DNA of 61,582 nucleotides from contig JAITFS010000243.1 of NCBI GenBank assembly GCA_031281195.1, positions 1 through 61,582 of the forward strand. The letters are read 5' to 3'. Below, one piece after another: positions 7,273 through 57,323 of this stretch. Under the pieces are notes generated by a model, which was not told where the DNA came from, made no database searches, and saw only the letters and a program-made list of their open reading frames with translations. Made by a program: the position numbers and the translations under genes. Source of the stretch: Oscillospiraceae bacterium. GTDB lineage: Bacteria > Bacillota > Clostridia > Oscillospirales > Oscillospiraceae. How positions within the stretch are numbered: the stretch's first letter is position 1; every line of letters starts with the position of its first letter.

Positions 7273-7275
7273 ATA

Positions 7276-8244: not shown

Positions 8245-8247
8245 ATA

Positions 8248-9210
8248 TTAACCACTCCGTTGTTTTATGAGTTTCTTTAATATTCCCGGTATAAACGTTA
8301 TTATTTGTCCAATTTTATATTCAACTGTATTCCTATAATCCCAAATTTTTATAAGCTCTTCATTTTTGCGACCAATCAACATATTTTTTGAGTGGTCATA
8401 ATGATAAGGACTTTTTAATGCAGTGCGATACCATAAGTTGAGAAGCAAAACCCTGTCATCACTGGTTTTCCATGGCTTTAAATGTGTCACAAAATGAATT
8501 ACTTTCGGGTTTCTCAGTGCATCTTCAACTTCATCAAAAAGAAATAATTTTTCCAATTTACCCTTAGCTATTGCTTGAAGGTATGATATATTGTATTTTA
8601 ACGGTAACAATACTATACGATTATAACAAACTCTGTTTAAGATATCTTGGTCAACATACTTATACTCTTTTGTAACAAGTTCCAGAAGTTTTGGTGCTAG
8701 TTTTTCATCTCGTATTACCTTAAGATTAATTATCATTACTCCTGAGTTTACATACTGATCCGGTTTTGGTATCTCTAACTCTTTACATCGTTTTTTATCA
8801 AATTCTATTTCTTTAACACCGGCTATTATATTGTTTCCTATATTATAATTCCAAAGCTCGGTTAAATCATTACAAATAATTAAATCACAATCAAGATATA
8901 AACACTTATCTAACATTGGTAAAAGTTCTGGTATTAGTAAACGAAAATATGCTTCAATAGAATAACAATCTCTTATTTTTATTTTATTAAACTTATCACC
9001 AACTATAACAAACTCTATCTCTGTGCCCGGGTATTGTTCTATTAGTTTATTAAACTTTTCAATAACTTCTATAGGCATTCTTGAACGTACTAAAAAATAA
9101 AAAGCATATTGTGTGCTTTCTTCTTTTGAGCGTAATACTGAGTAAGAGGTTACACACGCAGGTTTTGCATAGTTCTCATTAAAAGACATTACAATTGGTA
9201 TTTTGTTCAT
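8248..9210 (-). CDS. GT8-family glycosyltransferase, paralogue 4
   Basis: IPIVMSFNENYAKPACV, DCD, NSGVMIINL, DQDILN, HFVTHLKPW. Confidence 0.8.
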   Translation of the reverse strand: MNKIPIVMSFNENYAKPACVTSYSVLRSKEESTQYAFYFLVRSRMPIEVIEKFNKLIEQYPGTEIEFVIVGDKFNKIKIRDCYSIEAYFRLLIPELLPMLDKCLYLDCDLIICNDLTELWNYNIGNNIIAGVKEIEFDKKRCKELEIPKPDQYVNSGVMIINLKVIRDEKLAPKLLELVTKEYKYVDQDILNRVCYNRIVLLPLKYNISYLQAIAKGKLEKLFLFDEVEDALRNPKVIHFVTHLKPWKTSDDRVLLLNLWYRTALKSPYHYDHSKNMLIGRKNEELIKIWDYRNTVEYKIGQIITFIPGILKKLIKQRSG

Positions 9211-9211
9211 C

Positions 9212-10126
9212 TTATTTTTTCCACAACTTCATAATTGATCTAGGAATATATGTAACTACACTTCCAATTTTATAAGCTGTAGTGTCTCTGCCGTCTTCAA
9301 CTTGTTGTATCAGAGTATCATCATAACGCCATTTTAACATGTGTTTATTATGATCATGATTATAAGGACTTTCATACGCTGCTTGATACCATAAAAACAA
9401 TAATATAGCAAAATCACTATGAATCTTCCATGGTTTTTCTTTTCCTTTATATTGTACTATAGTTGGATTTTTTAATGCATCTTCTATATCAAATGGGGGA
9501 AAATATGCATCTAATAATTTTTTCCTAGTTATAACACTATAAACCATATTATATTTTAAAGGTAGAAGTTTTACTCGATTGTAACAAACTTTATTTAAAA
9601 TATCTTGTTCAGTGGTTTTTTTTCTTTTTGTAAAAAGCTCCAGATACTGTGCTACTAGCTTCTCTTCTCTTATTAGCTTAAGGTTCATCAGAAGAACCCC
9701 TGTTTCTATATATTGATCAGAAGTTGGTAAGCCTAACGTCTTATACCGTTTTTTACTGATTTCAATATCTTTAACGCCTGCAATAAAATTGTTTCCAATT
9801 TCTATATCCCATAAGTCTGTTAAATCATCACATACAATTATATCAAAATCAAGATACAAACACTTGTCTAATCCCGGGATTATATCAGCTATCTGTAATT
9901 TATTGTAGTTTTCAGAAATTACAATATACTCTATTTGAGTTTCCGGGTATAACTCTGTTAATTCGTTAAATTTCTCAATATTGTTTTCTGACATTTTAGA
10001 TTTTACCAAAAAATAAAATGTATACTGAGTACTACTTGCTTTTGTTTGTAAAGCTGAGTATGCCGCTACACAAGCAGGCATAGCATTATTCTCTTCAAAT
10101 CCCATAACAATCGGTATTTTGTTCAT
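9212..10126 (-). CDS. GT8-like paralogue 5, degenerate (internal ~14-aa deletion; metal-ligand His replaced by Gln)
   Basis: Start moved to MNKIPIVMGF (ATG complement at 10124-10126) with a GGAGA SD 7 nt upstream. It retains DFD and EQDILN. It lacks the ..AYFRLLIPELLP.. block and reads VQYKGKEKPW where the others read H(Y/F)....KPW. Confidence 0.7.
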   Translation of the reverse strand: MNKIPIVMGFEENNAMPACVAAYSALQTKASSTQYTFYFLVKSKMSENNIEKFNELTELYPETQIEYIVISENYNKLQIADIIPGLDKCLYLDFDIIVCDDLTDLWDIEIGNNFIAGVKDIEISKKRYKTLGLPTSDQYIETGVLLMNLKLIREEKLVAQYLELFTKRKKTTEQDILNKVCYNRVKLLPLKYNMVYSVITRKKLLDAYFPPFDIEDALKNPTIVQYKGKEKPWKIHSDFAILLFLWYQAAYESPYNHDHNKHMLKWRYDDTLIQQVEDGRDTTAYKIGSVVTYIPRSIMKLWKK

Positions 10127-10153
10127 ATTTATATCTCCAAACATGACTATATT

Positions 10154-11107
10154 TTATTTTTTTATCAACTTCTTTAACAACTTCGGTAAAAATGTTATTA
10201 TTTGCCCTATTTTATATTCTATTGTGCTTCTATACTCCCATGTTTTTATGATTGTTTTGTTTCTCCGTTTATTCAATGTATACATTGAATGGTCATAATG
10301 ATAAGGACTTTTCAATGCAACACGATACCATAATACGAATAACAAAACTCTGTCATCGCTGGTGTTCCAAGGTTTCTTTTTATCTAAATAGTGTATTATT
10401 ACTGGTTTTTTTGATACATCTTCAACTTTATCTAATAGAGATATTTTTTCTATCTTATTCTTAGCCATTGAATAACTAAAAAACATATTATATTTTAAAG
10501 GTAAAAATAGTATACGGTCATAACAGACTATATTCAAGATATCTTGATCTACATATCTATAACCTTTAGTAATTAATTCCAGAAACTTTGGAGTAAGATT
10601 TTCATCTCGTATTATCTTAAGATTAATTATCATCACTCCTGAGTTTATGTACTGATCCGATGAAGGTAATTCTAGCTCTTTATATCTTTTTTTATCAAGT
10701 AATTCTTCTTTAACACCCGCTATTATATTATTGCCAATGTCTATACTCCACAAACTTGCTAAATCAGTACATACCATAACGTCAACATCAAGGTATAGAC
10801 ACTTGTCCAACATAGGTAATAGTTCTGGTATTAGTAAACGAAAATATGCTTCTCTAGGATAATAATCATTTATAGCTGCAGTATCTAATCTATCACCAAT
10901 AATAACAAACTCAATCTTAGTGTCATGATATTGTTCTACTAATTTATCAAATTTTTCAACAACTTCAAAGGGCATACATGAGCGTACTAAAAAATAAAAA
11001 GCATACTGTGTGTTTTCCGCTTTTGAACGTAATGCTGAGTAAGCTGTTACACAAGCAGGCATTGCATAGTTTTCATCAAAAGACATAACGATTGGTATTC
11101 TGCTCAT
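10154..11107 (-). CDS. GT8-family glycosyltransferase, paralogue 6
   Basis: IPIVMSFDENYAMPACV, DVD, NSGVMIINL, DQDILN, HYLDKKKPW. Confidence 0.8.
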   Translation of the reverse strand: MSRIPIVMSFDENYAMPACVTAYSALRSKAENTQYAFYFLVRSCMPFEVVEKFDKLVEQYHDTKIEFVIIGDRLDTAAINDYYPREAYFRLLIPELLPMLDKCLYLDVDVMVCTDLASLWSIDIGNNIIAGVKEELLDKKRYKELELPSSDQYINSGVMIINLKIIRDENLTPKFLELITKGYRYVDQDILNIVCYDRILFLPLKYNMFFSYSMAKNKIEKISLLDKVEDVSKKPVIIHYLDKKKPWNTSDDRVLLFVLWYRVALKSPYHYDHSMYTLNKRRNKTIIKTWEYRSTIEYKIGQIITFLPKLLKKLIKK

Positions 11108-12069
11108 TTTAATCCTTTAAATAACTTCATTAATACTCTTGGTATAAAAGTAATTATACTTCCAATTTTATAAGACAATGTATTTCTAGCATCACTCGCT
11201 GTTTGTATTAATGTGTTATCATGACGACCAATTAGTATATTTTGAGCAATATGGTCGTATTGATATGGACTCTCAAGTGCTGCTTGATACCACAAATGTA
11301 ATAAAAAAGCGTAATCATCATGTATATTCCATGGTTTTTCTCTGCCTATATAATGGATTATTACAGGATTACTTATCGCGTCTTCAATTTCACTTTGTAA
11401 GTAATTAGTTTTTAGCAATTTGTTATTTGTGATTTCACATAATGGTATATTATACTTTAAAGGAAGGTATTTAATACGTTTATTACATTCTTTGTTTAAT
11501 ATATCTTGGTCATGGTATTCGTAACCTTGTGTAACAAGTTTTAGAAATCTTGATGTTAGGTTCTCGTCTCTAATAGCTTTAAGATTAAATATCAATACTC
11601 CTGCGCTTATATATTGATCCGGTGAAGAGATTCCAACTGCTCTATATCGTTTTTTACCACATTCTTTATTTTTCACACCGGCTAATAAGTTATTTCCTAT
11701 TTCATAATTCCATAGCTCTGTTAAATCATCACAAATAATTAAATCAACATCAAGATATAAGCATTTATCTAATTTAGGGAATAGCTCAGGTATCAATAAG
11801 CGGTAATATGATTCTTTTGATATATGTCTGCTGATAAATGCATCATCTAATCTTTCTCCAACTATAGCAAACTCAATCTCAGTACCGGGATACAGTTCAA
11901 CAAATTTATCAAATTTTTCAATCACATCAATTGGCATACTAGTACGTACCAAAAAATAGAAAGCATATAGTGTTTTCTCTTTTTTTGACCTTAAAGCAGA
12001 ATACACAGTAACGCATGCCGGCATTGCATATTTTTCATCAAAAGCCATAACAATTGGTATTATGCCCAT
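11104..12069 (-). CDS. GT8-family glycosyltransferase, paralogue 7 (first gene of the array)
   Basis: IPIVMAFDEKYAMPACV, DVD, DQDILN, HYIGREKPW. Start set at MGIIPIV (12067-12069) because the longer track ORF would begin upstream of the predicted promoter and transcription start. Confidence 0.75.
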   Translation of the reverse strand: MGIIPIVMAFDEKYAMPACVTVYSALRSKKEKTLYAFYFLVRTSMPIDVIEKFDKFVELYPGTEIEFAIVGERLDDAFISRHISKESYYRLLIPELFPKLDKCLYLDVDLIICDDLTELWNYEIGNNLLAGVKNKECGKKRYRAVGISSPDQYISAGVLIFNLKAIRDENLTSRFLKLVTQGYEYHDQDILNKECNKRIKYLPLKYNIPLCEITNNKLLKTNYLQSEIEDAISNPVIIHYIGREKPWNIHDDYAFLLHLWYQAALESPYQYDHIAQNILIGRHDNTLIQTASDARNTLSYKIGSIITFIPRVLMKLFKGLK

Positions 12070-12088
12070 AAAACTTTCCATTTCACAA

Positions 12089-12117
12089 TAGACTTTATCA
12101 GAGTATAGCATTATAAT
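12089..12117 (+). promoter_or_regulatory. Candidate promoter of the plus-strand GT2/ABC operon: -35 TAGACT (12089-12094), 17 nt, -10 TATAAT (12112-12117)
   Basis: Read directly. It sits 45 nt upstream of the TTG start at 12163. Confidence 0.4.
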
Positions 12118-20834: not shown

Positions 20835-21613
20835 ATACCTTTTCTCACAATAAACACATTGTTAGGTGATAGTGGCTGTAATATTTTATATAAAAATCCT
20901 GCACGTTTTGTACTTTTTTTACATTTCAATTTTATAGTATTTTCTTTTGTAGAGTATACATCCGGATATGCGATTATATCAGCAGTATACTCGTCATATT
21001 GAAAACCAATTTGTTTTATTATACGTTTAAACTTGAAGTAATTTATTAATAATATATCTTCTTGATATCTTTTAATTAATTTTAATAACAAAAAGAACAG
21101 ATGATTAGGTAACCAATGCAAAAACCACACTCCGGTATGTGCTTCCATTGGAAACAAACGATTTGGTGCATTAATGTAAGCACAACCATCACTTTTTAAC
21201 ACTCGATATATTTCATGTAATTGTATCTTTTGATCATTGTAACTAGATAAATGCTCAATAACATTATTATATATGACTATATCAAAACTATCATCACCAA
21301 AAGGTAGAGTTATATCTGTTAGTTTAATAAAATTTGATAGTTCGATTGATGGGATTTGAACATCACAACTTGCCACATTGTTTCCATAATTTTGCAAGAA
21401 CTGTGATATTTCACCATTTCCACAACCTACATCTAATATATTCATGTTACTTAACTCTAAATCCATACTAACAGTAAGTACACTTTTAATTAACCTTGCT
21501 TTTTCTATACGTGATAATGTTGAAGCATATCCACTATCCAGATAACTCTTTGCATCTCTCTGTTTTCTGTTACTAGAAAAAAAATACTTGGTTTTTATTA
21601 ATACTTTTTTCAT
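20831..21613 (-). CDS. Class I SAM-dependent methyltransferase
   Basis: ILDVGCGNGEISQFL, FDIVIYNNVIEHL, LKSDGCAYINAPN. Has ATGA overlaps with both neighbours. Confidence 0.75.
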   Translation of the reverse strand: MKKVLIKTKYFFSSNRKQRDAKSYLDSGYASTLSRIEKARLIKSVLTVSMDLELSNMNILDVGCGNGEISQFLQNYGNNVASCDVQIPSIELSNFIKLTDITLPFGDDSFDIVIYNNVIEHLSSYNDQKIQLHEIYRVLKSDGCAYINAPNRLFPMEAHTGVWFLHWLPNHLFFLLLKLIKRYQEDILLINYFKFKRIIKQIGFQYDEYTADIIAYPDVYSTKENTIKLKCKKSTKRAGFLYKILQPLSPNNVFIVRKGI

Positions 21614-23118
21614 TGTTTCATAAACCTAAACTTCCCTGTTCCTATAGAGTGTATAACAAAATAAATAGCTAGTGGTACTATTTGAATTAGCATACGTTCA
21701 AATGAACCACCATAACCTTCTCTAAAATAACCACCAGCCATAAATGCTCCTAATAAGGAAATAGGTAAAAATGTTGTTAACGAAAATCGTAACATAGTTG
21801 ATTCAGATTTTCGTTTTATGAACAATAGTATTATTATTATTAAGACAATAATTAATAGTAATGAAAATCCCCATGATGACTGCCATTGTGACTCTCTCTG
21901 GAATATAATAGTTTCAACTAAAGTCATACTTCTATGTATCATCCATCTTGGTGGTACTTTTTCATCAATATAATATAAGACTATCCATAAGGCTGCTTCT
22001 GTTATATATATCATATACCTTATAATATATGCGACTATTTTTATTTTATAAAGCCATTTTAATACAATTCCAATCACAACGACAGTTAAACCAATTAGAA
22101 CATGATATAAAGTAGGTGTTTCTAAATTGAAATTATATCCTCTACTTGCAGCGAGAAGATAATCTCTATAGTCAAGATATAATATATATCCATAATACAT
22201 AGCAACTGTTGCACCATATATAATTAGTATTAATTTTTTTTGATTAATTGTTACAGTATCTTTAGCTGCTATAAAAGGTATAATCATAAAAGCAACAATC
22301 AAAAATGATTCAGGACGAGTTACAATCATAGCAGATAAACATAGTGCCATCAGTATAAAATAAGCATTTTTATTTTCATTCTTTCTACTCATCACGATTG
22401 AACCACAAGCAGCAATCATTAATGCAAGTGCTGCAACAAGTAGATGTCCATTTATATAGAATAAATGAAAGACAAACCTATTTACGGTAATTAAAAGTAA
22501 TCCTCCGGCTAACATTAATAATATAGTTTTTTTCTTGGAAACAAAATCACTTACACTGTATTTAATGAACCACATTAATGATAAAACTGTTGATGTACCA
22601 AGTAACATAAAAACAGAACGCAAATAATACTCTCCTGTTATTTGTGCCGGGATAAAGATGATAGGTACACCTAACATACGATATATAAACCACCAACTAT
22701 GATAGCTTTCTACAGCATCAGCATAAAGCATTTTACTAAAAAAGATATATTGGAGTGAATCAGAGTGCCACTTTACCCAAACACCAAATTCAAACAATAG
22801 GAACACAACAATAATAATAAAAGTTATCATCATAACAGCATAAAAGCAAAAACTTTTTATTTCGTCTCTAATTACTATTTTTAATTTCTTTCGGATTAAT
22901 ATTGCTTTAATAATTGGATAAACATAAAACACAGATATTGTTATATACGGATTGTTTGGTATTGGTGAAATGATTTGCAATGTACCTACTACTATTTGAA
23001 GTGCAAGCCCGACTACGATACCCATAGCCATAGCTGCAAATCCTTTGATTCCAAGTGAATACAAAAAAACGTATCCACCGATGAAAATTAATATCATAAA
23101 TAACATTTCAACAATCAT
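21610..23118 (-). CDS. Polytopic membrane protein, ~12+ TM, family not recognised (copy 1; paralogue of 24674..26176)
   Basis: 502 aa, hydrophobic throughout. Motifs shared with copy 2: MIVE.., W..DS..Y, GVPII..PAQI.GE.YLR.VF.LLG, AGGLLL.T.NRFV...FYINGHL..AALAL, TR.ES, RMLIQIVPLAI. Confidence 0.5.
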   Translation of the reverse strand: MIVEMLFMILIFIGGYVFLYSLGIKGFAAMAMGIVVGLALQIVVGTLQIISPIPNNPYITISVFYVYPIIKAILIRKKLKIVIRDEIKSFCFYAVMMITFIIIVVFLLFEFGVWVKWHSDSLQYIFFSKMLYADAVESYHSWWFIYRMLGVPIIFIPAQITGEYYLRSVFMLLGTSTVLSLMWFIKYSVSDFVSKKKTILLMLAGGLLLITVNRFVFHLFYINGHLLVAALALMIAACGSIVMSRKNENKNAYFILMALCLSAMIVTRPESFLIVAFMIIPFIAAKDTVTINQKKLILIIYGATVAMYYGYILYLDYRDYLLAASRGYNFNLETPTLYHVLIGLTVVVIGIVLKWLYKIKIVAYIIRYMIYITEAALWIVLYYIDEKVPPRWMIHRSMTLVETIIFQRESQWQSSWGFSLLLIIVLIIIILLFIKRKSESTMLRFSLTTFLPISLLGAFMAGGYFREGYGGSFERMLIQIVPLAIYFVIHSIGTGKFRFMKQ

Positions 23119-23675
23119 CGTCTCAGCATCTCTATTCTTTCATACATATAATCCGGCAGTAAAGATGTATCTATAAAAATAACTATATAACCATGCCACC
23201 AAAGTGTTATAAACTCAGTTGCTTGTGTGTGTTCACTATTTAAAGCAATACGATGTCTTGAATCTTCATAAGTTGGTGGTATGATATATGGAGTTGGATC
23301 AAAATCATCAAGAAAACTATGAGGGTCATATTCCAACCATTCAAATGATTTTATATTACCAAGAAACACAAAATACCTAAATGGGTTAATCCATTCTCCT
23401 AAATGTAATCCATGCGGAGGGGTAATAAGATTTGCATTATCACTAACCTTACCCAAATCATAAGCATATTCATGGCGTGATCTATGTACCGGTACTTCCC
23501 AAAAAGCAATTTCATAGATATCCATATCTGAAGGGTATCTATAGAATGCTTTAAATCTCAAAGGAGCACGGTTATCCATCTCTTGGAATTCTAAAACATT
23601 TATTAATACAACAGCAAAGACTAATATAATAAGAACATTTTGTACTGTAAAAAGTGATATAAACTTTTTCAACAT
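23115..23675 (-). CDS. Single-pass membrane protein with ~150-aa predicted extracytoplasmic domain, family not recognised; homologous to the C-terminus of the 847-aa protein
   Basis: 186 aa. N-terminal TM is VLIILVFAVVLINVL. Motifs DIYEIAFWEVPVH, FLGNIKSFEWLEYD and EFITLWWHGYIVIFIDTSLL align with 26182..26712. Confidence 0.5.
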   Translation of the reverse strand: MLKKFISLFTVQNVLIILVFAVVLINVLEFQEMDNRAPLRFKAFYRYPSDMDIYEIAFWEVPVHRSRHEYAYDLGKVSDNANLITPPHGLHLGEWINPFRYFVFLGNIKSFEWLEYDPHSFLDDFDPTPYIIPPTYEDSRHRIALNSEHTQATEFITLWWHGYIVIFIDTSLLPDYMYERIEMLRR

Positions 23676-23681
23676 ATTATA

Positions 23682-24656
23682 TTACCTTTTCTTGTTTGTA
23701 TCAGTGTTCTTATCAACACATTCACATTCCATTTTACGCACTCTGTATTGCACATCCTCAATCATCTTTCGATTTGCTGCTGCTACATCAGCTTGTAATC
23801 CCGCTATAATAAGCTGCACACCTACCATAATAAGCATTGCCGCAAGCACCAGAGATGGTATATTCCCACCGCCACCACCTAAATGCGACAAAATAAACCA
23901 ACGTACTATAAATCCAACTCCAACCAATGATACTGCTGTACCTAAATACATAAAAAACTTTAGAGGTCTATACATCATAACTGAACGAACAATAACTGTC
24001 GCTGAGCGTTGTATATATCCCCACATACTTTTAAACAGCCGTGATTTTCTAAGCTCAGGATTTGTACGTACCGGCACGCTCGTTATAGAAATACGATTAT
24101 TACCTGCTTGGATAATTGTCTCTAACGTGTAAGTATACATATTATGTACATTTATTCTCAAAGCTGCTTCACGCGAATATGCACGAAATCCACTTGGAGC
24201 ATCTGGAATTTTTGTTCCGGATGCTATACGTACCACAAGTGAACCTAAACGTTGTAAACGTTTTTTCACAAACGAAAAATGCTTAGTTTTATCAATTGGT
24301 CGCTCACCAATTACAATATCTGCTTGCTCTTTAAGAATTGGTTCTATAAGCTTCTCAATATCTGCAGCGTTATATTGATTGTCAGCATCAGTATTTACAA
24401 TTATATCTGCTCCAAGCTTTAAGCAAGCGTCAACACCTGTAATAAATGCACGGGCAAGCCCTGAGTTCATTTTTAGTTTTACTATATGATGAACACCACA
24501 CTCACGTGCTATAAGAGCAGTATTATCCGTACTACCATCATCAATAATTAAATACTCAATCTCATCAATGCCTTTTACAGAACGTGGTAAATCAGCTACT
24601 GTAACGGGTAGAGTTTTTTCTTCATTATAGCATGGTATTTGTATTAAAAGCTTCAC
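23682..24656 (-). CDS. GT2 polyprenyl-phosphate glycosyltransferase (GtrB/CsbB/ArnC/DPM1-like) with two C-terminal TM helices
   Basis: IQIPCYNEEKTL, YLIIDDGSTDNT, VNTDADNQY. C-terminal TMs are FFMYLGTAVSLVGVGFIVRWFIL and IPSLVLAAMLIMVGVQLIIAGL. GTG start. Confidence 0.8.
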   Translation of the reverse strand: MKLLIQIPCYNEEKTLPVTVADLPRSVKGIDEIEYLIIDDGSTDNTALIARECGVHHIVKLKMNSGLARAFITGVDACLKLGADIIVNTDADNQYNAADIEKLIEPILKEQADIVIGERPIDKTKHFSFVKKRLQRLGSLVVRIASGTKIPDAPSGFRAYSREAALRINVHNMYTYTLETIIQAGNNRISITSVPVRTNPELRKSRLFKSMWGYIQRSATVIVRSVMMYRPLKFFMYLGTAVSLVGVGFIVRWFILSHLGGGGGNIPSLVLAAMLIMVGVQLIIAGLQADVAAANRKMIEDVQYRVRKMECECVDKNTDTNKKR

Positions 24657-24673
24657 GTGTCTACTAGCCTCTC

Positions 24674-26176
24674 TTATGCATCGTCAATCTGATTATACAC
24701 TATTTTCTTTATTTTTTCAATGTATAACACACATCTCTCCTTAGTAAATCTAAAATCACCTAATCCAATGGACATTACGATAAATAATATAGCAAGCGGT
24801 ACAATTTGAATTAACATTCTATTCATTGAATCTCCAAATCCAACTCTATAAGGACTCTCTCTTAAATGCGCTAATATAAACATAAATGGTAGAAACGTTG
24901 TAACCGGAAAGCGAAGTATTGCCATGTTTTTTGGTCGTTTTATTAACAAAAGAACAGAAATAGTCAAGCATATTAGTATTACAAATGACCAACCCCACGC
25001 ACCATCTCCTAATATAATGTTATGGTATATTGATTCCAGAGTGGTATTAATTATATATCGATTTTGGTATGAGAGTATTATCAGTGTATACCATAATAAT
25101 AATTCTGAAATTATAACAATATTAGTAACAACAAATTTTATTACTTTTAACTTAATTAAGAATTTTAATAAAATTGCGAGAAATGTTAGTAGAATACCAA
25201 ATAAAACATAGGAAAAAACCAAGCTGTTTATTCCGTTATCTAATAATAAAAGAATAAAAGAATGGCATATAACCGCTGATACCCCAAGTGATAATAATAT
25301 AGCACTTTTGTACTTCCATGATAAAATTTTAGCAGCAAGTATCGGTAATACTGCAAGTGCGGCAACTAAAATTGATTCTGATCTTGTTAATACTAATGCA
25401 GGTATAGCTACTATTATTATTGCCAATAAACGTTTTTTGCTTTTATTATCATCAGATACCATAAACCAAGCGCAACCCGATATCACAAGAGCAAGTGCAG
25501 CACAAAACAGATGTCCATTTATATAAAAACTATTCCAAACAAACCTGTTATTTGTTAATAATAACAGTCCCCCTGCAAATACTAAAAACCACATAGTTTT
25601 CTTTGATACTCGTTTTTTTAGTCCTTGATATATAAAACACATCAATGTCGTAAATGTTGCAATACCAAGAAGTGGGAATACTGCACGCAAATAAACTTCA
25701 CCAACTATCTGTGCCGGGCTATGTATAATAGGTACTCCGAACATTCTTTTTGTCAAAAGGTCTTCTGAGAGTAACTCTAATCTGTTTTCATACATAATTT
25801 GACTGGACAATAAGTACCGCATTGAATCATAACTCCATTTAACGAAACCTTCATTAAAAAGTAATGTAACAGTAATAGTTACAACAGCAATTGAAACTGC
25901 TATGTATGTTAGTAATCTTATAAAACTGATTGATGTTATGCCTTTGATACATGTATAAATTAACAACAGAAACGGTAACAAAAAGGTTAATCCAACAGTA
26001 ATTACAGCATTGTATGGTACATTAATCATTATCAATACGGTGCCAATAATTACTTGTATTGCAAGTCCCATGATAAAACCAAGAGAAATAGCAGCAACCC
26101 CTCGTATACCCATTGTGTACACAAAAGCAAAACCACCAAGCAATATTAAACTTAAACAAATTAGTTCAACTATCAT
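24674..26176 (-). CDS. Polytopic membrane protein, family not recognised (copy 2; paralogue of 21610..23118)
   Basis: 500 aa. Shares the motif set listed for copy 1. Confidence 0.5.
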   Translation of the reverse strand: MIVELICLSLILLGGFAFVYTMGIRGVAAISLGFIMGLAIQVIIGTVLIMINVPYNAVITVGLTFLLPFLLLIYTCIKGITSISFIRLLTYIAVSIAVVTITVTLLFNEGFVKWSYDSMRYLLSSQIMYENRLELLSEDLLTKRMFGVPIIHSPAQIVGEVYLRAVFPLLGIATFTTLMCFIYQGLKKRVSKKTMWFLVFAGGLLLLTNNRFVWNSFYINGHLFCAALALVISGCAWFMVSDDNKSKKRLLAIIIVAIPALVLTRSESILVAALAVLPILAAKILSWKYKSAILLSLGVSAVICHSFILLLLDNGINSLVFSYVLFGILLTFLAILLKFLIKLKVIKFVVTNIVIISELLLWYTLIILSYQNRYIINTTLESIYHNIILGDGAWGWSFVILICLTISVLLLIKRPKNMAILRFPVTTFLPFMFILAHLRESPYRVGFGDSMNRMLIQIVPLAILFIVMSIGLGDFRFTKERCVLYIEKIKKIVYNQIDDA

Positions 26177-26181
26177 TTAAC

Positions 26182-28725
26182 TTATCTCCTGAGCTCGCGT
26201 ATCACATCTTTAGTTAGTAGAGTAATATCAATAATCAGTGTAACCTCATCATATTGTTCAATTAATAAAAACTCTTTCGCTTTGTCATGTTCAGCACTCA
26301 TCAGTATTCTATACTGCCTATCTTGTGGTATGTCTTCATTTCCAATTACTGTATAAAGTCTTATATCTAAATCATCCGGTAAAATACTAACATCATAATT
26401 TAACCTTTCAATACTGCTAATATTCCCGAAAAACAATATAACCTCCGGCATAAGGTATGATAAATAATAATCATCCGGTATAATAAGCACAGCGTTATTA
26501 CTGACAGTTCCTAATGCCTCTGCCATTCCGTAATAGAATTTGTGCCCAGGTGATTCAGAAAAAACTATTTCATAAATATCTGATGTATCATAGTTATATA
26601 ACGCTCTGTATCTTTCCCATATAATATTATCTATGCTTCTAAATTGAATAATATTGATTAGAATAGCCAATAAAAGCATAACTGCAAAAACCATTTTAAT
26701 ATTAACAAAGCTCTGTATACCTTGTTTTTTATTTGTTGGTTCTGCATTAGATATGTATGGTTTCTCGCCAAGATTAATACTTAGTAATTCTAAAGCTAAA
26801 CCTCTCTCATCTTTGCTTAACTCTCCAAGCCACTTATCTGAACCTTCCGTGTTTGAATATAAAATTATCATAGAGGTTTTTATGTTTTCTAGGTTTTTAT
26901 CAATTTGGTGTTTAGTTCCGGCAGAGTATTCTCTGTTTTCTACAAAAGTATTGATATCTCTATACGCAATTAGATAACCTCTAAGCTTCTGTATGTTACC
27001 TTCGCCGGTTGTAGTTGAACCGGAGCGTATCCTTCTGATATAAAACGTTTCTTTAAGATGCGAAACTCTATCTGCTTGCATAATACATAGAAATGTAAAA
27101 AGATCGTCTTCGTGGAAAACACCCTCACAGAAGCTAATATGACATTTTTTAATATAATCTGTACTAATTAACAACATACATGGTGAGCATCTGTATTCAT
27201 CGTTAACCATCATAGCGGTAAACATATTAGGACCATTATCAACAGCACTATAATCAAATGCTCTTATATAGTAATTGTCAGAAATTCTTCTATTGTTTTC
27301 GTATTGTAACTCTTTATCGTAAATAATTTCTGAATCAAAAGATACAATATCAAGATTATTTTCTACAGAATAATTATACGTTTTCTCAAGAGCATTAGGC
27401 TTTAACATATCATCACTATCAATAAAATATATGTATTTTCCTTTAGCTGCTCTTATTCCTTTGTTACGTGCTGCTCCTTGTCCCCGGTTTTCTTGAGAAA
27501 TAACCACAAAACGATTATCGTTAGCTGCATATTCATTTAGTATTACCAATGAATCATCTGTTGAACCATCGTTTATGCAAATTATCTCTATATCATGAAG
27601 TGTTTGATTTACAATACTATCAAGGCACTCACGTAAGTATTTTTCTGTATTATAAACCGGGATAATCACACTAACTGCAACTCTTTTCCCAGTTTTATTT
27701 TCTGCCAGGTAAGTTACAGTTTCATCAACTTTTTCAAGTAATGCACGCATTAATACTTTGTCATCATCGTTATAATTAGTGTACCTTAGGTTAAGCCTAT
27801 CCGCACAAAATGATACATCAAGCGGGCCATATATTAAAAGCTTATCTCCAAGTGAAATAATAATATCCTCAAGCTCTTTTTCACTTGTTAATATTCTCTC
27901 ACCTGATATGTTAGCATCCAGTAACATTGCATACTCAATCGAGTATTTTTTCATTTTTGTTGTAGATACCTCACCGGTTGCTTTTATTTCATTAAACAAT
28001 CTACCCAGTTGAAAGGCGTCGAGTGCATCTCTGGGATATGGCTCTGATGAATGCCACTTGTTTATCCAATTTACAATGCCTTTTCTTTCAACTTGCTTTT
28101 TGCTTCTGATTGGAAAATGAGCAAATACTAACTTATCACAAATTTCTGATTTTATGCTTTGCTTTTTATTTGGATAAATCAAAAAGTGTGTTCCATCAAC
28201 AACTGTTGCTTTTTTATCTACAATTAAATATTTACTAATGATAACTTTTTTATGCCGCTCGTATTTATCAGGGTTTTCCATCTCCGGATTTCTATAATGT
28301 GTGAAATTATTTGGCATAAACCCTAATTTAATATCAGGTTCATGCTCATACACATAAGTTCTCCATATCGCTTGATATTCCACGTCTTCTTGCATTTTCT
28401 CAAGTGTTTCCCGCGGGTTAATCCCATCAATATGATATAAGAATTCATCTGTATCTAAAGGTATTACCAGGTCTGCATTATACTTATTTGCTGCGATTTT
28501 TATAAGTTCTTTTTTTGCAATCTCATAATTTTTATCTTCATCATCTTCAAAATAGATAGAAAGTCCTTCATATATTAGTTTTGTCAGTATTTCACGGGTA
28601 TTATCGCTGCTTTTGTGGTTTTCATACACAAGCATAATATCACAAAAAGATAAAGTGTAACGACAAAAAGACTCAACAATATCAGCTTCATTTTTTATTG
28701 CAACTGTTGCCACAATCTTTTTCAT
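26182..28725 (-). CDS. Multidomain protein: N-terminal GT-A (Glyco_tranf_2_4-like) + classical GT2 + one TM + C-terminal ectodomain homologous to 23115..23675
   Basis: VATVAIKNEADIVESF...PLDTDEFL; VSVIIPVYNTEKYLRECLDSIVNQ..ICINDGSTDDS..YIYFIDSDD; TM MVFAVMLLLAILINIIQF (about 26643-26702); then DIYEIVFSESPGH...IDITLLTKDVIRELRR. Confidence 0.7.
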   Translation of the reverse strand: MKKIVATVAIKNEADIVESFCRYTLSFCDIMLVYENHKSSDNTREILTKLIYEGLSIYFEDDEDKNYEIAKKELIKIAANKYNADLVIPLDTDEFLYHIDGINPRETLEKMQEDVEYQAIWRTYVYEHEPDIKLGFMPNNFTHYRNPEMENPDKYERHKKVIISKYLIVDKKATVVDGTHFLIYPNKKQSIKSEICDKLVFAHFPIRSKKQVERKGIVNWINKWHSSEPYPRDALDAFQLGRLFNEIKATGEVSTTKMKKYSIEYAMLLDANISGERILTSEKELEDIIISLGDKLLIYGPLDVSFCADRLNLRYTNYNDDDKVLMRALLEKVDETVTYLAENKTGKRVAVSVIIPVYNTEKYLRECLDSIVNQTLHDIEIICINDGSTDDSLVILNEYAANDNRFVVISQENRGQGAARNKGIRAAKGKYIYFIDSDDMLKPNALEKTYNYSVENNLDIVSFDSEIIYDKELQYENNRRISDNYYIRAFDYSAVDNGPNMFTAMMVNDEYRCSPCMLLISTDYIKKCHISFCEGVFHEDDLFTFLCIMQADRVSHLKETFYIRRIRSGSTTTGEGNIQKLRGYLIAYRDINTFVENREYSAGTKHQIDKNLENIKTSMIILYSNTEGSDKWLGELSKDERGLALELLSINLGEKPYISNAEPTNKKQGIQSFVNIKMVFAVMLLLAILINIIQFRSIDNIIWERYRALYNYDTSDIYEIVFSESPGHKFYYGMAEALGTVSNNAVLIIPDDYYLSYLMPEVILFFGNISSIERLNYDVSILPDDLDIRLYTVIGNEDIPQDRQYRILMSAEHDKAKEFLLIEQYDEVTLIIDITLLTKDVIRELRR

Positions 28726-31700
28726 CTGTTATTCCTCGACTCTAATACCGCATCCGCTGTTGCTTGCAAAAAAGCATATCCATATTTTCGATCCGGTTCT
28801 AAATGTGCACCTTCTGCCCACTCATTCCACGCGTTAATAAAAACAAATCTGTTACCACTGTCAAAGTTTTTCTCAGCATCCTTAATTATATCACTAAGCC
28901 ACTCTTTATAAAGTTTTGGAGAAACATCAAATATATGCAAATCATCTATACGTCTTGCAGAATTGTCAAATGTTGGGATTATCCCCCTGTACATCAAATC
29001 TCTACCATCAGTTCTATATAGTTTTCTTCTCACATACTCTTCCATATCGTAAATATAACACATACTTTTACCATTTGCAGATAAAATCTCTTTTCGTAAG
29101 TCCTCAATTATATGATTACCAATATCATGCGGTGCTTGGGCTATTGCACCGTCTAAGTTATATATTAGTGGATTTAACTCACTATTATCAGTACCAATTA
29201 TGTGTATTTCTCCTATTTCATTTTTTCTGCAATAATCACGCCATATATCAATTGTTTTGTTTATATCAGGCATAAATCCCGGATTATTTACAGAAATTAT
29301 AGGTTTTCCATTAACTCTGATGTATCTTTTATCAGAAAAATAGCTCGATACCTCTTTTATAAATGCTAAATCGTCTTCTTCAGAATATGTTTGTTCAAGC
29401 AAAACATTATCCTCTGAGGAGTCCCATATCCTTGTCCAACTGTGATTCGCCCAATTTACACAAAATGGGAAATCTAAGTCCTTTTTTGCGTTTAAATAGT
29501 TTTCAAATGGTTTTTCCAGCAACCTCTTACCTTTAAACCAGTAAAAATGGAACATAAATCCATATATACCATAATTTTTTGCGAGTTTTACTTGCTCCTT
29601 CATCACATTTATATCAGATAAATCATAAAAAGTCTCCAACGGTAAGTGTGGTTGATAATGGCCGGGAAAATGCGGTACTGCTTTTGTTACATTAGTCCAC
29701 TCTGTAAAGCCCTTACCCCACCATTTATCGTTTTCCGGAATAGTATGAAACTGCGTTAGATAACAAGCTATTGGTTTCACATCTTCATTAGAAAAAGTAA
29801 TGTTATTTTCTTTATATTCTACGAAATCTTTACTTTTTTTACCTGCTTGGAATACAGTATCCACGTAATCTTTATATTCATTTATTTCCGGTGTTTTTAT
29901 GTTTTCTTGCTGCTTTCTTATTCTTATCGCTTCTTGATAACATTCAAGCGTTAGTATAGCTGTTTTCTCCCATGAAAACTCGTTTATTGCACGTTCTTTA
30001 CCTTTTTTACCTAAGTTATCTCGTAGTTTTTTATCATTTTGTAGAGTTTTCATTTTTTCATATATATCGTCAATGTTATGTGGGTCAACGTAGAGCACAG
30101 TATCTCCACCAACCTCAGGCATTGACGTTGTATTACTTGTGATGACCGCTGCACCAAGTGACATTGCTTCTAAAATAGGAAGCCCAAAACCCTCATACAA
30201 GGACGGATATACCACAGCATAACAAGCTTTATACAATGTTGCTAACTGACTTTCTGTTACATATCCTAATAAACGTAAGTTTTTTCCAATATTTGCAGCT
30301 TCTATCTCCTTGTGTATTTCTTCGGTTAACCATCCTTCTTTTCCGGCAATATATAATGGGAAGGTTTCTCCTTCGTTATGGAGTTTTATGTATGCACGAA
30401 TGAGTGCTGTTATATTTTTGCGTGGTTCTAGTGTTCCGACAAAAAGCCAAAATGGTTTATCAACATTTATAACAAGTGATTTTAGTTCATTTTTTATATC
30501 AATTGATTCTAAAAGTTTTTTACGATATGACAGTGGAATAACATGTACTTTTTCTGCTTTTATATGTGGGAAATGTTTTAGAAATGTATTTTTTGTATGC
30601 TCTGATATTGCGATAAACATATCGGCATTTTGTGAAGCACTATTTATTGCAGACATGCAGTTTTTTACTGTAATATCAATATGTGTTTCCGGGATTTCTA
30701 AAAATGATAAATCGTATAATGTATACACCTTTGCTGCACTTGGATGGTCTAAAAACTCGTTACGTGCAGAATGTACAATATCCGGAATCCTTTTTTCATT
30801 ATTCATAGCATTGTATTGACGATAAATATTCTGTGGTGCAATCGAATTCATCGCTTCTAATAGCTGAGAAATATACTGTTCAATACCGGTTGATTTAAAC
30901 CCTTCGATTTCATTTATGTCAATTTCTACTACCAAATTATCAGAATCATCAACAAAATCACTATCATCAAACTCATCAATCCACTTAACAAATCCAAGCC
31001 TTCGCCCGAGCTTTAACCATCGTGAATTTTTTATATGATTAGCTATATTTATACGATTACTATTCGCTTTTTTGTCTAGTTCACAAATTGCTTCTGTTTC
31101 TATCATCTCTACTTTTTCATTAGATTTAATAGCTTCAAACACAGTTTTGCATCGTTTATTAAAAGACTCAACAGTGTAATTCTCAGCTTTTTTTATAGCT
31201 TGTTTTGCCATTTTAACTCTTTGTTTTTCATCGTTTATTAATATACATGTTTTTTTGATACATTCACTTTCGTTATTCCAAAGATAACCATCTATACCAT
31301 CATCAACAATCTCAGGCTGTCCACCTTTGTTTATCACAACCGGTACAGCACCATTACTCATAGCTTCAACAGTGGTAATTCCAAAGTGTTCTGCCTTATA
31401 TGGTTCGATATTTATATCCTCATCATATCCTGTTGCATGCCAAAAGATTTTTGCTTTTTCAAAAAGTGAGGTTATTTCTTCTGTTTTGGCATTTGTGTGA
31501 ATAAATACAGGGTAACTGTCAGCCAGCGTTTTTATCTCATCAACGTATAAAATATCAGATGGATTATCACTTACACCACCTGCTAAATGCAGCTCATAAT
31601 CTTTTAGCTTCTTTATGTTTTTTATGAAAATCCTAACAAGCTCAAGTTGTTTTTTACAATGTCCACCTGCGAAAAATCTACCTACACTTAGTATTATATT

Positions 31701-33026
31701 TTCTTTTTTAGCTTCATCATAATTTTCAACAGCTTCTTGTTTCTTAAAAACCGGTGGATAAATGATTTTGTACTCTAGTTTTTCTCCCCAGTATTTAATT
31801 AACCAGTCTCTTGAAAACTCTGAAATTGGTATGAACATATCATAACTATCTATAAATTGTTCATCTGCTAGGCTGCTCACACCATCACTCGGTTTTGGCG
31901 GAAACATGCAGATATAGACATTCTTTTTTGCTTTTCCTTGCTGTTTACTAAGAAACATAAAGTTTATAAACAGGTCATATTCTGCGGTTTTATCTGTTAT
32001 TGCTTGATTACTCCCGTGCATCTCTTCGAATGTTTCTTTTTTATCTATATCAATTTTTACTATTTTTGTACGATTAAGGTGTAAATCAAATCGTTTTGTT
32101 AATTTCTCTAAAATTCTATCTTCATCGTTATTAAACTCATCGTATAAGAATTTGTTTGTTAATATGTCAATCTCAGCATCGGGGTAAAATTCTTCAAGAA
32201 ACTGACACAAATACCCCATATATTTTTCACCACCGCCAAGCACATACAGTGATGGATTATATATGAGTATTTTTTTTACTCTTTTTTTCGTAAAAAGACT
32301 TTTATCTTCTTCATATATCTTATATAACTCCGGCTCTTGATAATATCCTCGTGTGATTCCCTCATAATGAATGAACTCAACCTTTGGCTGCATCATAATG
32401 GATAAACCGGCAGCTTTTAGTTTCAAACAAAAATCCACATCACCGTAAAATGTTCGATATTGTTCATCCATATAACCAACTTGCTCATAAACACTTCTTC
32501 GGCTCATTAAACACGCGCCGGTAACCCATGTTACTTCATGTACTCTTCTTTGATTTTCCTGCGAATACCATGTGTCCTTTGGCATACCTGCATTTATATG
32601 CCCTGAATACGGTTCCTCATCTGATACAAAACCTCCTGCATGTTGAATGGTATTATCAGGGAAATACAAAGTACACCCAACCGCTCCAACATCTTTGTTT
32701 TTTGCCACCCCAATCATCAACTCGAGCCAGTTTGGAGTAAGTAGTTTTGTATCGTTATTAAGTTGAACAATATATTCAGAGCTACAGTTTTTTACAGCGA
32801 AGTTGATAATTTTCTGGTAATTAAACTCAATTTCCTTATACTCCAGAATACGGATGTTCTTATGCTTTTTTAGTGTCTCGTAATAAGCGAATGTCTCTTT
32901 TTCTGTACTATTATTCTCAACAATAACAATCTCATACCTCTTGTATGTTGTCAGCTCAAGAACTGACTCAATACAAGTCTTTAAATACGAAATTTTATCC
33001 TTATTAAGAACTATAATAGAAACCAT
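28722..33026 (-). CDS. 1434-aa four-domain glycosyltransferase: GT2 + GT4 + GT4 + WbsX/GH99-like C-terminal domain
   Basis: GT2: VSIIVLNKD..YEIVIVENNSTE..QLNNDT..DVDFCLK. GT4-1: GRFFAGGHCKKQ..EHFGITTVEAMSNGAVPVV. GT4-2: VGTLEPRKNI..YEGFGLPILEAMSLGAAVITSN. WbsX-like (about 28725-29775): IACYLTQFHTIPENDKWWGKGFTEWTNV...FINAWNEWAEGAHLEP. Confidence 0.75.
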   Translation of the reverse strand: MVSIIVLNKDKISYLKTCIESVLELTTYKRYEIVIVENNSTEKETFAYYETLKKHKNIRILEYKEIEFNYQKIINFAVKNCSSEYIVQLNNDTKLLTPNWLELMIGVAKNKDVGAVGCTLYFPDNTIQHAGGFVSDEEPYSGHINAGMPKDTWYSQENQRRVHEVTWVTGACLMSRRSVYEQVGYMDEQYRTFYGDVDFCLKLKAAGLSIMMQPKVEFIHYEGITRGYYQEPELYKIYEEDKSLFTKKRVKKILIYNPSLYVLGGGEKYMGYLCQFLEEFYPDAEIDILTNKFLYDEFNNDEDRILEKLTKRFDLHLNRTKIVKIDIDKKETFEEMHGSNQAITDKTAEYDLFINFMFLSKQQGKAKKNVYICMFPPKPSDGVSSLADEQFIDSYDMFIPISEFSRDWLIKYWGEKLEYKIIYPPVFKKQEAVENYDEAKKENIILSVGRFFAGGHCKKQLELVRIFIKNIKKLKDYELHLAGGVSDNPSDILYVDEIKTLADSYPVFIHTNAKTEEITSLFEKAKIFWHATGYDEDINIEPYKAEHFGITTVEAMSNGAVPVVINKGGQPEIVDDGIDGYLWNNESECIKKTCILINDEKQRVKMAKQAIKKAENYTVESFNKRCKTVFEAIKSNEKVEMIETEAICELDKKANSNRINIANHIKNSRWLKLGRRLGFVKWIDEFDDSDFVDDSDNLVVEIDINEIEGFKSTGIEQYISQLLEAMNSIAPQNIYRQYNAMNNEKRIPDIVHSARNEFLDHPSAAKVYTLYDLSFLEIPETHIDITVKNCMSAINSASQNADMFIAISEHTKNTFLKHFPHIKAEKVHVIPLSYRKKLLESIDIKNELKSLVINVDKPFWLFVGTLEPRKNITALIRAYIKLHNEGETFPLYIAGKEGWLTEEIHKEIEAANIGKNLRLLGYVTESQLATLYKACYAVVYPSLYEGFGLPILEAMSLGAAVITSNTTSMPEVGGDTVLYVDPHNIDDIYEKMKTLQNDKKLRDNLGKKGKERAINEFSWEKTAILTLECYQEAIRIRKQQENIKTPEINEYKDYVDTVFQAGKKSKDFVEYKENNITFSNEDVKPIACYLTQFHTIPENDKWWGKGFTEWTNVTKAVPHFPGHYQPHLPLETFYDLSDINVMKEQVKLAKNYGIYGFMFHFYWFKGKRLLEKPFENYLNAKKDLDFPFCVNWANHSWTRIWDSSEDNVLLEQTYSEEDDLAFIKEVSSYFSDKRYIRVNGKPIISVNNPGFMPDINKTIDIWRDYCRKNEIGEIHIIGTDNSELNPLIYNLDGAIAQAPHDIGNHIIEDLRKEILSANGKSMCYIYDMEEYVRRKLYRTDGRDLMYRGIIPTFDNSARRIDDLHIFDVSPKLYKEWLSDIIKDAEKNFDSGNRFVFINAWNEWAEGAHLEPDRKYGYAFLQATADAVLESRNNR

Positions 33027-56921: not shown

Positions 56922-57323
56922 ATGAAAACTATCAAAAAATTATTGTCAAATCCTAACATTGTACAAATCATCAAGTTTTGTTTTGTTGGTGTACTTAACA
57001 CTGCTGTTTATTATATTGTTTATCTTTTATTATTGAAAATTGGTTTTAACTATGCAGTAGCTGCAACAGTTGGAACACTCGCCGGAATTATAAACAGTTA
57101 TCTGTTTAACAAATTTTTTACATTTAAATCCAAAAAAAAATCAATTGCTGAGATTATTAAGTTTTGTATAGTTTACTTAATTCAATTTTTAAGTAATCTT
57201 TTAGTTATCTATATATGTGTAAACTTTATTGGTTTATCCGAAGAATTAGCAGGTATACCACCGGTTTTCACAGGAATGATTATAAGCTTTTTAGGACACA
57301 AGTTCTGGAGCTTTAAGAAGTAA
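56922..57323 (+). CDS. GtrA-family protein (polyprenyl-phosphate-sugar flippase family)
   Basis: 133 aa, 4 TM. IIKFCFVGVLNTAVYYIVYLLL and GHKFWSFKK are classic GtrA-family ends. Confidence 0.8.
   Translation: MKTIKKLLSNPNIVQIIKFCFVGVLNTAVYYIVYLLLLKIGFNYAVAATVGTLAGIINSYLFNKFFTFKSKKKSIAEIIKFCIVYLIQFLSNLLVIYICVNFIGLSEELAGIPPVFTGMIISFLGHKFWSFKK

Follow-up and report, generated by a model that had tools for sequence, protein, structure and literature searches.

A duplicated membrane-protein pair in an Oscillospiraceae surface-glycopolymer locus as a candidate two-subunit, GT-C-like extracytoplasmic glycosyltransferase

The contig JAITFS010000243.1 of an Oscillospiraceae bacterium (assembly GCA_031281195.1), referred to below as the window, meaning the whole stretch of 61,582 nucleotides (nt) that was analysed, represents one large surface-glycopolymer locus, in which GT4 glycosyltransferase (GT) genes, methyltransferases, sugar-nucleotide enzymes, an ABC exporter and rmlB/rmlD are found together. 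The subject of this work is a module inside this locus that consists of two copies of a gene pair and a GT2 gene, each pair encoding a small protein with a single transmembrane (TM) helix and an ectodomain, and a polytopic protein of about 500 residues. A preliminary description of the DNA had proposed the module as an extracytoplasmic glycosylation machine, and all open reading frames (ORFs) that it had assigned to the module were recovered on the minus strand. The features on which the following argument depends are listed here.

21610..23118, minus strand: polytopic subunit of copy 1 (P0001), 502 aa; candidate catalytic subunit with a predicted GT-C-like fold.
23115..23675, minus strand: small partner of copy 1 (P0014), 186 aa; N-terminal TM anchor at about residues 11-36, then an alpha/beta ectodomain (about 150 aa).
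23682..24656, minus strand: GT2 enzyme of the polyprenyl-phosphate sugar synthase type (GtrB/ArnC/DPMS/AglJ-like), 324 aa; two C-terminal TM helices.
24674..26176, minus strand: polytopic subunit of copy 2 (P0002), 500 aa; paralogue of copy 1.
26182..26706, minus strand: partner ectodomain of copy 2 (TM anchor plus ectodomain), residues 674-847 of an 847-aa protein; 194 bits with the partner hidden Markov model (HMM).
26707..28725, minus strand: cytoplasmic part of the 847-aa protein; Pfam domains Glyco_tranf_2_4 (residues 11-97) and Glycos_transf_2 (residues 352-489).
56922..57323, plus strand: GtrA-family protein, 133 aa, candidate flippase for undecaprenyl-phosphate (Und-P)-linked sugar; PF04138 GtrA_DPMS_TM, E 2.6e-28.

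The two polytopic proteins align end to end with 37% identity (E 8e-101), which agrees with their earlier description as paralogues, and the motifs W..DS..Y, FYINGH, TR(P/S)E and RMLIQIVPLAI, from which this had been concluded, are present in both, several of their residues being invariant throughout the family. The statement that each polytopic gene is preceded by a homologous TM-anchored ectodomain was also borne out, because the 186-aa protein and residues 674-847 of the 847-aa protein (26185-26706) share 35% identity (E 2e-21). At the copy 1 junction the stop codon of the small gene and the start codon of the polytopic gene overlap as ATGA, as had been noted, and 5 nt separate the stop of the 847-aa gene from the polytopic start in copy 2. 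The gene for the 324-aa GT2 sits between the two pairs. The Pfam domains of the 847-aa protein are likewise those expected from the earlier assignment of two GT-A domains, and the GtrA-type protein that had been recognized at 56922 is a clear member of its family. Judged from these alignments, the module in the window is confirmed as real and lies well outside chance expectation.

Neither partner could be assigned to a named family in the preliminary description, and systematic searches led to the same result. No Pfam-A or NCBIfam match was obtained for P0001, P0002 or the 186-aa protein, even at permissive thresholds, and none was found among PDB sequences; a profile built from 73 members of the polytopic family likewise matched no PDB chain at E≤10, and a set of 24 partner sequences gave no Pfam or PDB match beyond sub-threshold ones. 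When the 73 polytopic members were scanned one by one against Pfam and NCBIfam, only sub-threshold matches appeared, the sole meaningful ones being DUF6541 (two members, best E 1.1e-5), WsfD (9e-4) and YfhO (0.057), all of which are membrane glycosyltransferase families. Profile-profile alignment with hhalign gave probabilities below 1% against the DUF2142 and DUF7657 proteins of the window and no relation to its 600-aa protein that has no Pfam match. No Wzy_C, O-antigen ligase or EpsG match in Pfam was detected in the proteins of the window or in the 73 polytopic members, so that the HMM check proposed earlier placed neither partner in a characterised family of this kind. In addition, no WWDYG-type or other known motif was found in the polytopic family, and literature searches yielded no description of it; a paper on the Actinoplanes gsf cluster was considered and set aside, as it deals with a different, non-GT-C protein. 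By sequence comparison, the polytopic protein is outside every curated GT-C sequence family (PMT_2, YfhO, DUF2142, DUF6541, GtrII, etc.).

A word-index homology search with the polytopic protein returned only 13 relatives. A much larger family was recovered by an exhaustive profile search of 1.84 billion representatives (clustered at 50% identity), which identified 1163 representatives at E≤1e-3 and 330 at E≤1e-30, nearly all of them 470-510 aa long; ten members from this search were examined and none had a Pfam domain. Members of the family are encoded in GTDB species-representative genomes of Actinomycetota (Salinibacterium, Homoserinimonas, Phytohabitans, Micromonosporaceae, Acidimicrobiia and Salsipaludibacter) and Alphaproteobacteria (Hyphomicrobium, Methyloceanibacter and Glycocaulis), and others were found in Saccharibacteria, Chloroflexia, Desulfobacteraceae, Trueperaceae (Deinococcota), Planctomycetaceae, one metagenome-assembled genome (MAG) of Bacillota and a Woesearchaeota archaeon. 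Of the 23 loci recovered from these genomes, a single one belongs to Bacillota, which shows that the family is no Firmicute speciality; it is spread over many bacterial phyla and at least one archaeon. Across the 73 sequences, six residues are invariant (G15, D120, H225, R268, S472 and R475 in P0001 numbering) and a further twelve are nearly so (E4, R147, Y221, N223, E270, E374, W378, R444, R461, Y465, R466 and D471). The codon of D120 in copy 1 lies at 22759-22761, and those invariants that were checked in copy 2 are kept there as D117, H222, R265, S450 and R453.

For the small partner, a word-index search with the 186-aa protein found only the protein itself, and one with a 10-sequence profile found four proteins; the family was recovered through synteny and local HMMs. 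In the first seven genomic contexts, a gene of 176-218 aa without a Pfam match lies directly upstream of the polytopic gene and its product aligns with the two ectodomains of the window. The HMMs of both partners were scanned over all ORFs of 30 loci plus the window (29 distinct other loci), and a match to the small partner was detected directly upstream of the polytopic gene in 26 of the 29 other loci, which belong to at least eight phyla. The three loci without a detectable partner (L028-L030) contain the most divergent or partial polytopic matches. Thus, the neighbourhood co-occurrence on which the earlier proposal had been made to depend is found almost everywhere. A second pair is present in three other loci, in tandem in L003 and L010 and divergently oriented in L027. 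The complete module of small, polytopic and GT2 genes was also observed in a Candidatus Woesearchaeota MAG (L019, 1490-4604), i.e., in a DPANN archaeon, with overlapping junctions, which implies either inter-domain transfer or great age of the module.

Counting the two of the window, 30 adjacent pairs were available in 27 loci. As the distance from the partner stop to the polytopic start ranges from -11 to +5 nt in 29 of these 30 pairs, with a 4-nt overlap in 18, the gene junctions suggest translational coupling of the two genes. The sole loose junction is that of Methyloceanibacter marginalis (L020), where 232 nt separate the polytopic gene from a partner ORF (1881-2246) that is shortened to 121 aa, perhaps through a frameshift or an error of assembly. 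The pairwise distances of partner and polytopic proteins are correlated (Mantel r 0.70, a value reached in 0 of 2000 permutations), to which shared operon ancestry contributes. Furthermore, two proteins, P0122 and P0107, are natural fusions with the order polytopic core, TM helix, ectodomain, whose C-terminal extensions match the partner profile in hhalign with probabilities of 99.0% (E 7e-18) and 98.2% (E 5.5e-14), respectively. Overall, the partner sequence shows little conservation, with a mean column identity of 23%. Its TM helix, however, contains an Asn in all 33 sequences, which is followed by a Phe in 31 of them; further conserved features are a Gly (G106) and, at the C-terminus, an (I/V)(D/E)xSLL motif. 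The Asn and the Phe correspond to Asn26 (codon 23598-23600) and Phe30 in copy 1, and the Asn is residue 691 of the 847-aa protein (codon 26653-26655) in copy 2.

Judged by gene order and alignment, the small protein is an obligate partner of the polytopic protein. It could instead be co-transcribed and have only an accessory role, for instance as a chaperone for assembly or as an unrelated protein that binds a secreted polymer, the polytopic GT-C-like enzyme acting alone, and the low conservation of the ectodomain as well as the divergent or partial loci in which no partner was detected would agree with such a role; yet the near-universal stop/start overlaps, the co-divergence, the two natural fusions, the Asn kept in 33 of 33 TM helices, and a pTM that stays at 0.89 when the partner is appended in a structural model (see below) all argue against it, and we regard this explanation as very improbable.

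A different fusion had been emphasized in the preliminary description, in which the joining of the copy 2 ectodomain to cytoplasmic GT domains was taken as Rosetta-stone evidence that the two work together. In PDB searches, the GT2 domain of the 847-aa protein matches chondroitin synthase (2.6e-34), GalT1 (9e-32) and TarP/TarS-like enzymes, whereas GtrB, ArnC and DPMS reach only 1e-6 to 1e-4; by these matches, its closest solved relatives are chain-building GT-A enzymes rather than Und-P-sugar synthases. A GT domain fused to the partner ectodomain was found in none of the 29 other loci and was seen in the window only. Long ORFs upstream of the polytopic gene in some high-GC loci were considered as further cases and rejected, as GT domains are absent from them and their reading frames have most likely been called too long. 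Because it is absent from all other sampled loci, the GT-ectodomain fusion is a local event and weak functional evidence. The Rosetta-stone argument itself holds in another form, as the polytopic-TM-ectodomain fusions P0122 and P0107 provide stronger evidence of this type.

The 324-aa GT2 between the two pairs matches PF00535 (E 2.8e-26), and its best NCBIfam matches, which are near full length and below equivalog cut-offs, are AglJ (2e-31), PpgS (3e-20), ArnC (5e-15) and PgfS (3.5e-12), together with a haloarchaeal Dol-P-hexose transferase. Over residues 1-292, including the TM region, it also matches the PDB structures of DPMS (5mlz, 6e-13), ArnC (9hwj/9bhc/8vxh, 9e-12) and GtrB (5ekp, 1e-7). 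By homology, it is a polyprenyl-phosphate glycosyltransferase of the GtrB/CsbB/ArnC/DPMS/AglJ type, in agreement with the earlier statement that such an enzyme heads copy 1. In L006 and L007, the pair is adjoined by full-length orthologues with 50-55% identity, and L005 has a more distant one. In 17 of 30 sources, among them the archaeal locus L019 with the gene order small, polytopic, GT2, a strong match to the GT2 profile (at least 330 bits) is located no more than 6 kb from the pair.

With regard to the flippase that such a donor would require, it is plausible that the GtrA protein encoded at 56922 is linked to the pairs of the window. In ten other loci, genes of the LPG_synthase_TM family (MprF-flippase-like) are present within 6 kb of the pair (L002, 9579-10577; L005, 12136-13137; L006, 4458-5411; L007, 6898-7827; and also L008, L010, L011, L013, L014 and L023), and none is present in the window. 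This family has been predicted as a glycosylation flippase and is encoded beside GT-C-like and AglD-like genes in archaea (PMC5898192). The LPG_synthase_TM proteins may therefore be the Und-P-sugar flippase of the pair system in taxa without a nearby GtrA gene. Candidate flippases were noted near the pair in 11 loci; in the loci that have one, it is encoded separately from the pair.

Structural models were used to place the polytopic protein. The AlphaFold2 model of the 502-aa protein (predicted local distance difference test score, pLDDT, 83.1; predicted template-modelling score, pTM, 0.89) contains about 15 long helices and a 56-residue loop (113-168) with three short helices, which begins near the invariant D120 and is predicted to lie outside. 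Foldseek comparison of this model with the PDB returned AglB (5gmy, 3waj) and ArnT (5ezm) as the top three matches with probabilities of 0.97-1.0, and the remainder at 0.15 or below; the scores of these top matches are weak (E 0.02-0.11, TM-score about 0.3). In a second model, P0001 and P0014 were joined into one chain in the domain order of the natural fusions, using a 19-row alignment, which gave a pLDDT of 85.0 (about 76-92 in the ectodomain) and a pTM of 0.89. The six best Foldseek matches of this pseudo-fusion are all GT-C enzymes, namely STT3A (8pn9, E 2.5e-3), AglB (5gmy, 2.9e-3), STT3A (8b6l), ArnT (5f15 and 5ezm) and EmbA, with probabilities of 0.84-1.0, followed by AftA, ALG12 and ALG3 at 0.5-0.7. 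Appending the partner raises the number of aligned columns from about 400 to about 590 and improves the E-value to 2.5e-3. The superposition on GT-C structures is weak (E 2.5e-3 to 1; TM-score 0.23-0.36 by query length and up to 0.44 by target). Major facilitator superfamily (MFS) and other transporters occupy lower ranks with probabilities of at most 0.15, and the top 50 matches include no chain of WaaL, RodA or Wzy. GT-C enzymes are thus the sole credible structural neighbours in the Foldseek check that had been suggested, weak as the resemblance is.

The counts of Lys plus Arg in the 73-sequence alignment predict an N-out, C-in topology, with an average of 4.7 such residues in the C-terminal tail, and this agrees with the natural fusions, where the partner TM helix and then the outside ectodomain come after the core. 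The even-numbered loops, which carry D120, R147 and the FYxNGH, TRPE and YRxGxGDSxNR motifs, are predicted outside, so that most invariant or near-invariant polar residues of the polytopic protein are in predicted outer loops. According to the AlphaFold2 models, the protein has the GT-C trait of at least 7-13 TM helices, with about 15, and it likely belongs to the GT-C fold superfamily. The modelled arrangement is also consistent with a partner positioned where STT3, AglB or ArnT have their C-terminal soluble domain.

Two other functions of the polytopic protein were weighed against these data. It might be a transporter, a flippase or a non-sugar transferase for which the ectodomain is an adaptor, its GT-C likeness being a helical-bundle artefact. 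TM-scores of only about 0.3, the transporters at lower Foldseek ranks, the lack of a sequence link to curated GT-C families and the existence of loci without a GtrB-like GT2 or an identifiable flippase are in favour of this explanation. It seems unlikely, as the transporter matches all have probabilities of at most 0.15 compared with 0.84-1.0 for the six top GT-C matches, the invariant Asp, His and Arg in outer loops fit an outer-face active site better than a transport path, and the candidate flippase, where one is present, is encoded by a separate gene.

The second possibility is that the pair acts as a polymerase or ligase of lipid-linked glycans, either as a processive Emb/Aft-like GT-C enzyme or in a Wzy/WaaL-like manner on Und-PP-linked units, with the ectodomain setting chain length or acceptor choice. 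EmbA and AftA are indeed among the structural matches, the pair lies within polymer-assembly loci (a Wzy_C gene is nearby in L004), and the conserved outer-loop Arg and His are also typical of Wzy and WaaL. None of the 73 family members, however, shows a Wzy_C, O-antigen ligase or EpsG match, WaaL, RodA and Wzy structures do not appear among the 50 best Foldseek matches, the commonest companion of the pair is an Und-P-monosaccharide synthase, which makes the donor for decorating GT-C enzymes, and several of the loci use ABC-transporter pathways, which need no outer-face polymerase; we consider this function quite unlikely. Accordingly, of the earlier proposal that the pair is an outward-facing transferase or polymerase, the outward-facing enzyme is supported, and a transferase is better supported than a polymerase.

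The reading we favour, with a probability of roughly 0.6, is that each pair forms a two-subunit, outward-facing GT-C-like glycosyltransferase that takes part in a three-component route and is fed by an Und-P-sugar, a function inferred from predicted fold, topology and gene neighbourhood. In such a route, the 324-aa GT2, whose enzyme type is assigned by homology, would load a sugar from a nucleotide sugar onto undecaprenyl phosphate at the cytoplasmic face, and a flippase (GtrA at 56922 or, in other taxa, the LPG_synthase_TM-like neighbours) would carry the Und-P-sugar to the outer leaflet. There, the invariant and near-invariant polar residues of the 15-helix subunit would line a pocket on the outer face that binds the lipid-linked donor, with D120 as a candidate catalytic base or metal ligand and R147, H225, R268, R466, S472 and R475 as candidate phosphate or sugar ligands, and the sugar would be passed to the cell-wall glycopolymer built by the surrounding GT2, GT4, GT8 and WbsX genes. 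Because of the strict pairing, the stop/start overlaps, the co-divergence, the natural fusions and the fused model, the TM helix of the small subunit with its invariant Asn is proposed to pack on the polytopic subunit and to hold the ectodomain over the outer face, where it would supply in trans the acceptor binding and/or stabilisation that the C-terminal periplasmic domain provides in cis in ArnT, PglB, AglB and STT3. It is known that several GtrC-type enzymes can share one GtrA/GtrB pair. The presence of two diverged pairs on either side of one donor synthase makes it probable that both transfer the same sugar, either to different sites or in different linkages, or else to two different polymers. 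A more specific version, in which the pair is an obligate heterodimeric GT-C-type enzyme with a composite donor or acceptor site, to which the type II subunit contributes the intramembrane Asn and the ectodomain, is tentative and has somewhat less than an even chance of being correct.

Several observations weigh against the favoured reading. The structural likeness to GT-C enzymes is weak (TM-scores 0.27-0.36, root-mean-square deviation 10-16 Å, best E 2.5e-3), and no profile-level sequence link connects the polytopic family to curated GT-C families or PDB chains. The pseudo-fusion is an artificial single chain in which the ectodomain is covered by only nine sequences. The conserved Asp follows the fourth predicted helix and not the first; therefore, the fit to a GT-C core needs three extra N-terminal helices and an N-out topology, and in the models the fourth predicted helix would correspond to TM1 of GT-C enzymes. 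Finally, a GtrB-like GT2 is absent within 6 kb of the pair in 13 of 30 sources, and the GtrA gene of the window is about 32 kb from the pairs and on the opposite strand.

Three-component systems have been described in the form of Shigella/Salmonella Gtr, Bacillus subtilis CsbB/YfhO, lactococcal Csd, streptococcal GacI-L and SccN/M, and Citrobacter GT136 (PMC8035078, PMC11127046). The present module resembles the GtrABC and CsbB-YfhO systems in that a GT2 Und-P-sugar synthase with C-terminal TM helices is encoded beside a polytopic protein with a conserved acidic residue, here in a predicted outer loop, a GtrA-family protein is present in the genome, the setting is a surface-glycopolymer locus, and one synthase can serve several outer-face transferases. 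Unlike in those systems, the polytopic protein is in no catalogued GT-C family (PMT_2, YfhO, DUF2142, GtrII and others), a single-pass ectodomain partner is encoded separately, and in many taxa the flippase candidate is of the LPG_synthase_TM type instead of GtrA. To our knowledge, which includes the literature searches made here, such a partner has not been described for Gtr-type systems.

With ArnT, PglB, AglB and STT3, which comprise its best structural matches, the pair shares a TM core followed by an outer-face domain; this domain is here a separate polypeptide with its own TM anchor, the TM-scores are 0.27-0.36 without sequence similarity, and the polytopic protein has three additional predicted N-terminal helices with an N-out orientation. 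We know of no described bacterial counterpart of such a split GT-C architecture, the nearest precedent being the eukaryotic Gpi14/PIG-M with Pbn1/PIG-X. In that complex, the catalytic GT-C protein Gpi14/PIG-M depends on Pbn1/PIG-X, an accessory subunit with one TM helix that packs against it (PMC12653191). As an analogy only, both cases combine a GT-C-like core, a polyprenyl-type phosphate-sugar donor (predicted here) and a single-pass partner with a non-cytoplasmic soluble domain, whereas the eukaryotic complex is located in the endoplasmic reticulum and Pbn1/PIG-X is a type I protein with a C-terminal anchor, in contrast to the N-terminal anchor of the type II partner described here. Membership in PIG-M/PIG-X is not indicated by Pfam, in which neither partner has a match.

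A further similarity exists with archaeal gene neighbourhoods containing arCOG00899, which is MprF-flippase-like, arCOG00563, which is distantly PMT/STT3-like, and AglD-like GT2 genes (Makarova et al. 2015, PMC5898192). The combination of GT2, LPG_synthase_TM and GT-C-like polytopic genes is repeated in ten of the loci, and the woesearchaeal locus has the GT2-small-polytopic part of the scheme with no LPG_synthase_TM-like match. The partner ectodomain, on the other hand, is not described in those archaeal neighbourhoods.

Additional features of the window and of other loci deserve mention. A gene for a 1434-aa protein (28722-33026, minus strand) composed of GT2, GT4, GT4 and a C-terminal WbsX domain directly precedes the 847-aa gene, and its stop codon overlaps the start codon of the latter. 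At 5324-12111 (minus strand), seven head-to-tail paralogues of about 310-335 aa form an array beside the glycopolymer locus, which is unusually long for the GT8 type; both members that were scanned (5324-6292 and 11104-12111) are GT8. Genes for a DUF2142 polytopic protein (484 aa), a 307-aa GT2 and a 665-aa DUF7657+DUF7654 protein follow one another at 43645-48010 (minus strand) and probably represent one or two further extracytoplasmic glycosylation modules. An odd fusion of an N-terminal YidC/60KD_IMP insertase and a C-terminal TagF-like CDP-glycerol glycerophosphotransferase (627 aa) is encoded at 51552-53435 (plus strand). At 53404-56790 (minus strand), a BCCT-family transporter adjoins a fused nucleotidyltransferase and choline kinase (LicC/LicA-like), which suggests phosphocholine decoration of the same wall polymers. 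The gene adjoining that of GtrA (57404-58612, minus strand) encodes DUF4214 repeats with a phage-tail-lysozyme-like domain, and its product may be a wall-polymer-binding hydrolase. Three further proteins have no Pfam match at E≤1e-4 (793-3330, minus strand, 845 aa; 3509-5323, plus strand, 604 aa; 49313-51115, minus strand, 600 aa).

The neighbourhoods of the pair in other genomes are also glycopolymer loci, with genes for ABC transporters, TagF-like proteins, GT4 enzymes and pyruvyl transferases. Polysaccharide pyruvyl transferase genes are located near the pair in L005 (9526-12161), L006 (1709-3007) and L007 (4577-6901), accompanied by FrhB/FdhB-like genes in L005 and L007, which hints at pyruvylated secondary cell-wall polymers as acceptors in these three organisms.

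Phage receptors, serotypes and immune recognition depend on how wall teichoic acids, rhamnose polysaccharides, O antigens and S-layer glycans are decorated outside the cytoplasm, and the outer-face transferases known to us are single polypeptides from a handful of catalogued GT-C families. The present analysis adds about 1000 sequence clusters that Pfam and NCBIfam leave unnamed, together with a dedicated membrane-anchored partner. While the three-component glycosylation scheme is known and no new principle is involved, the new element is a GT-C-like family with an obligate ectodomain subunit that would act in trans. These findings would allow many pairs of hypothetical proteins in glycan loci of Actinomycetota, Alphaproteobacteria, bacteria of the candidate phyla radiation (CPR) and other groups to be annotated, and the residues for mutation are defined (D120, H225, R268, S472 and R475 in the core and N26 in the partner). 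The three adjacent genes offer a small, tractable system for studying how GT-C enzymes recognize polymeric acceptors, with the acceptor-side domain split from the catalytic core. If the composite-site heterodimer proves true, it would be the first prokaryotic counterpart of PIG-M/PIG-X, and it would represent a new CAZy glycosyltransferase family and an accessory-subunit family extending from Bacillota and Actinomycetota to CPR bacteria and DPANN archaea.

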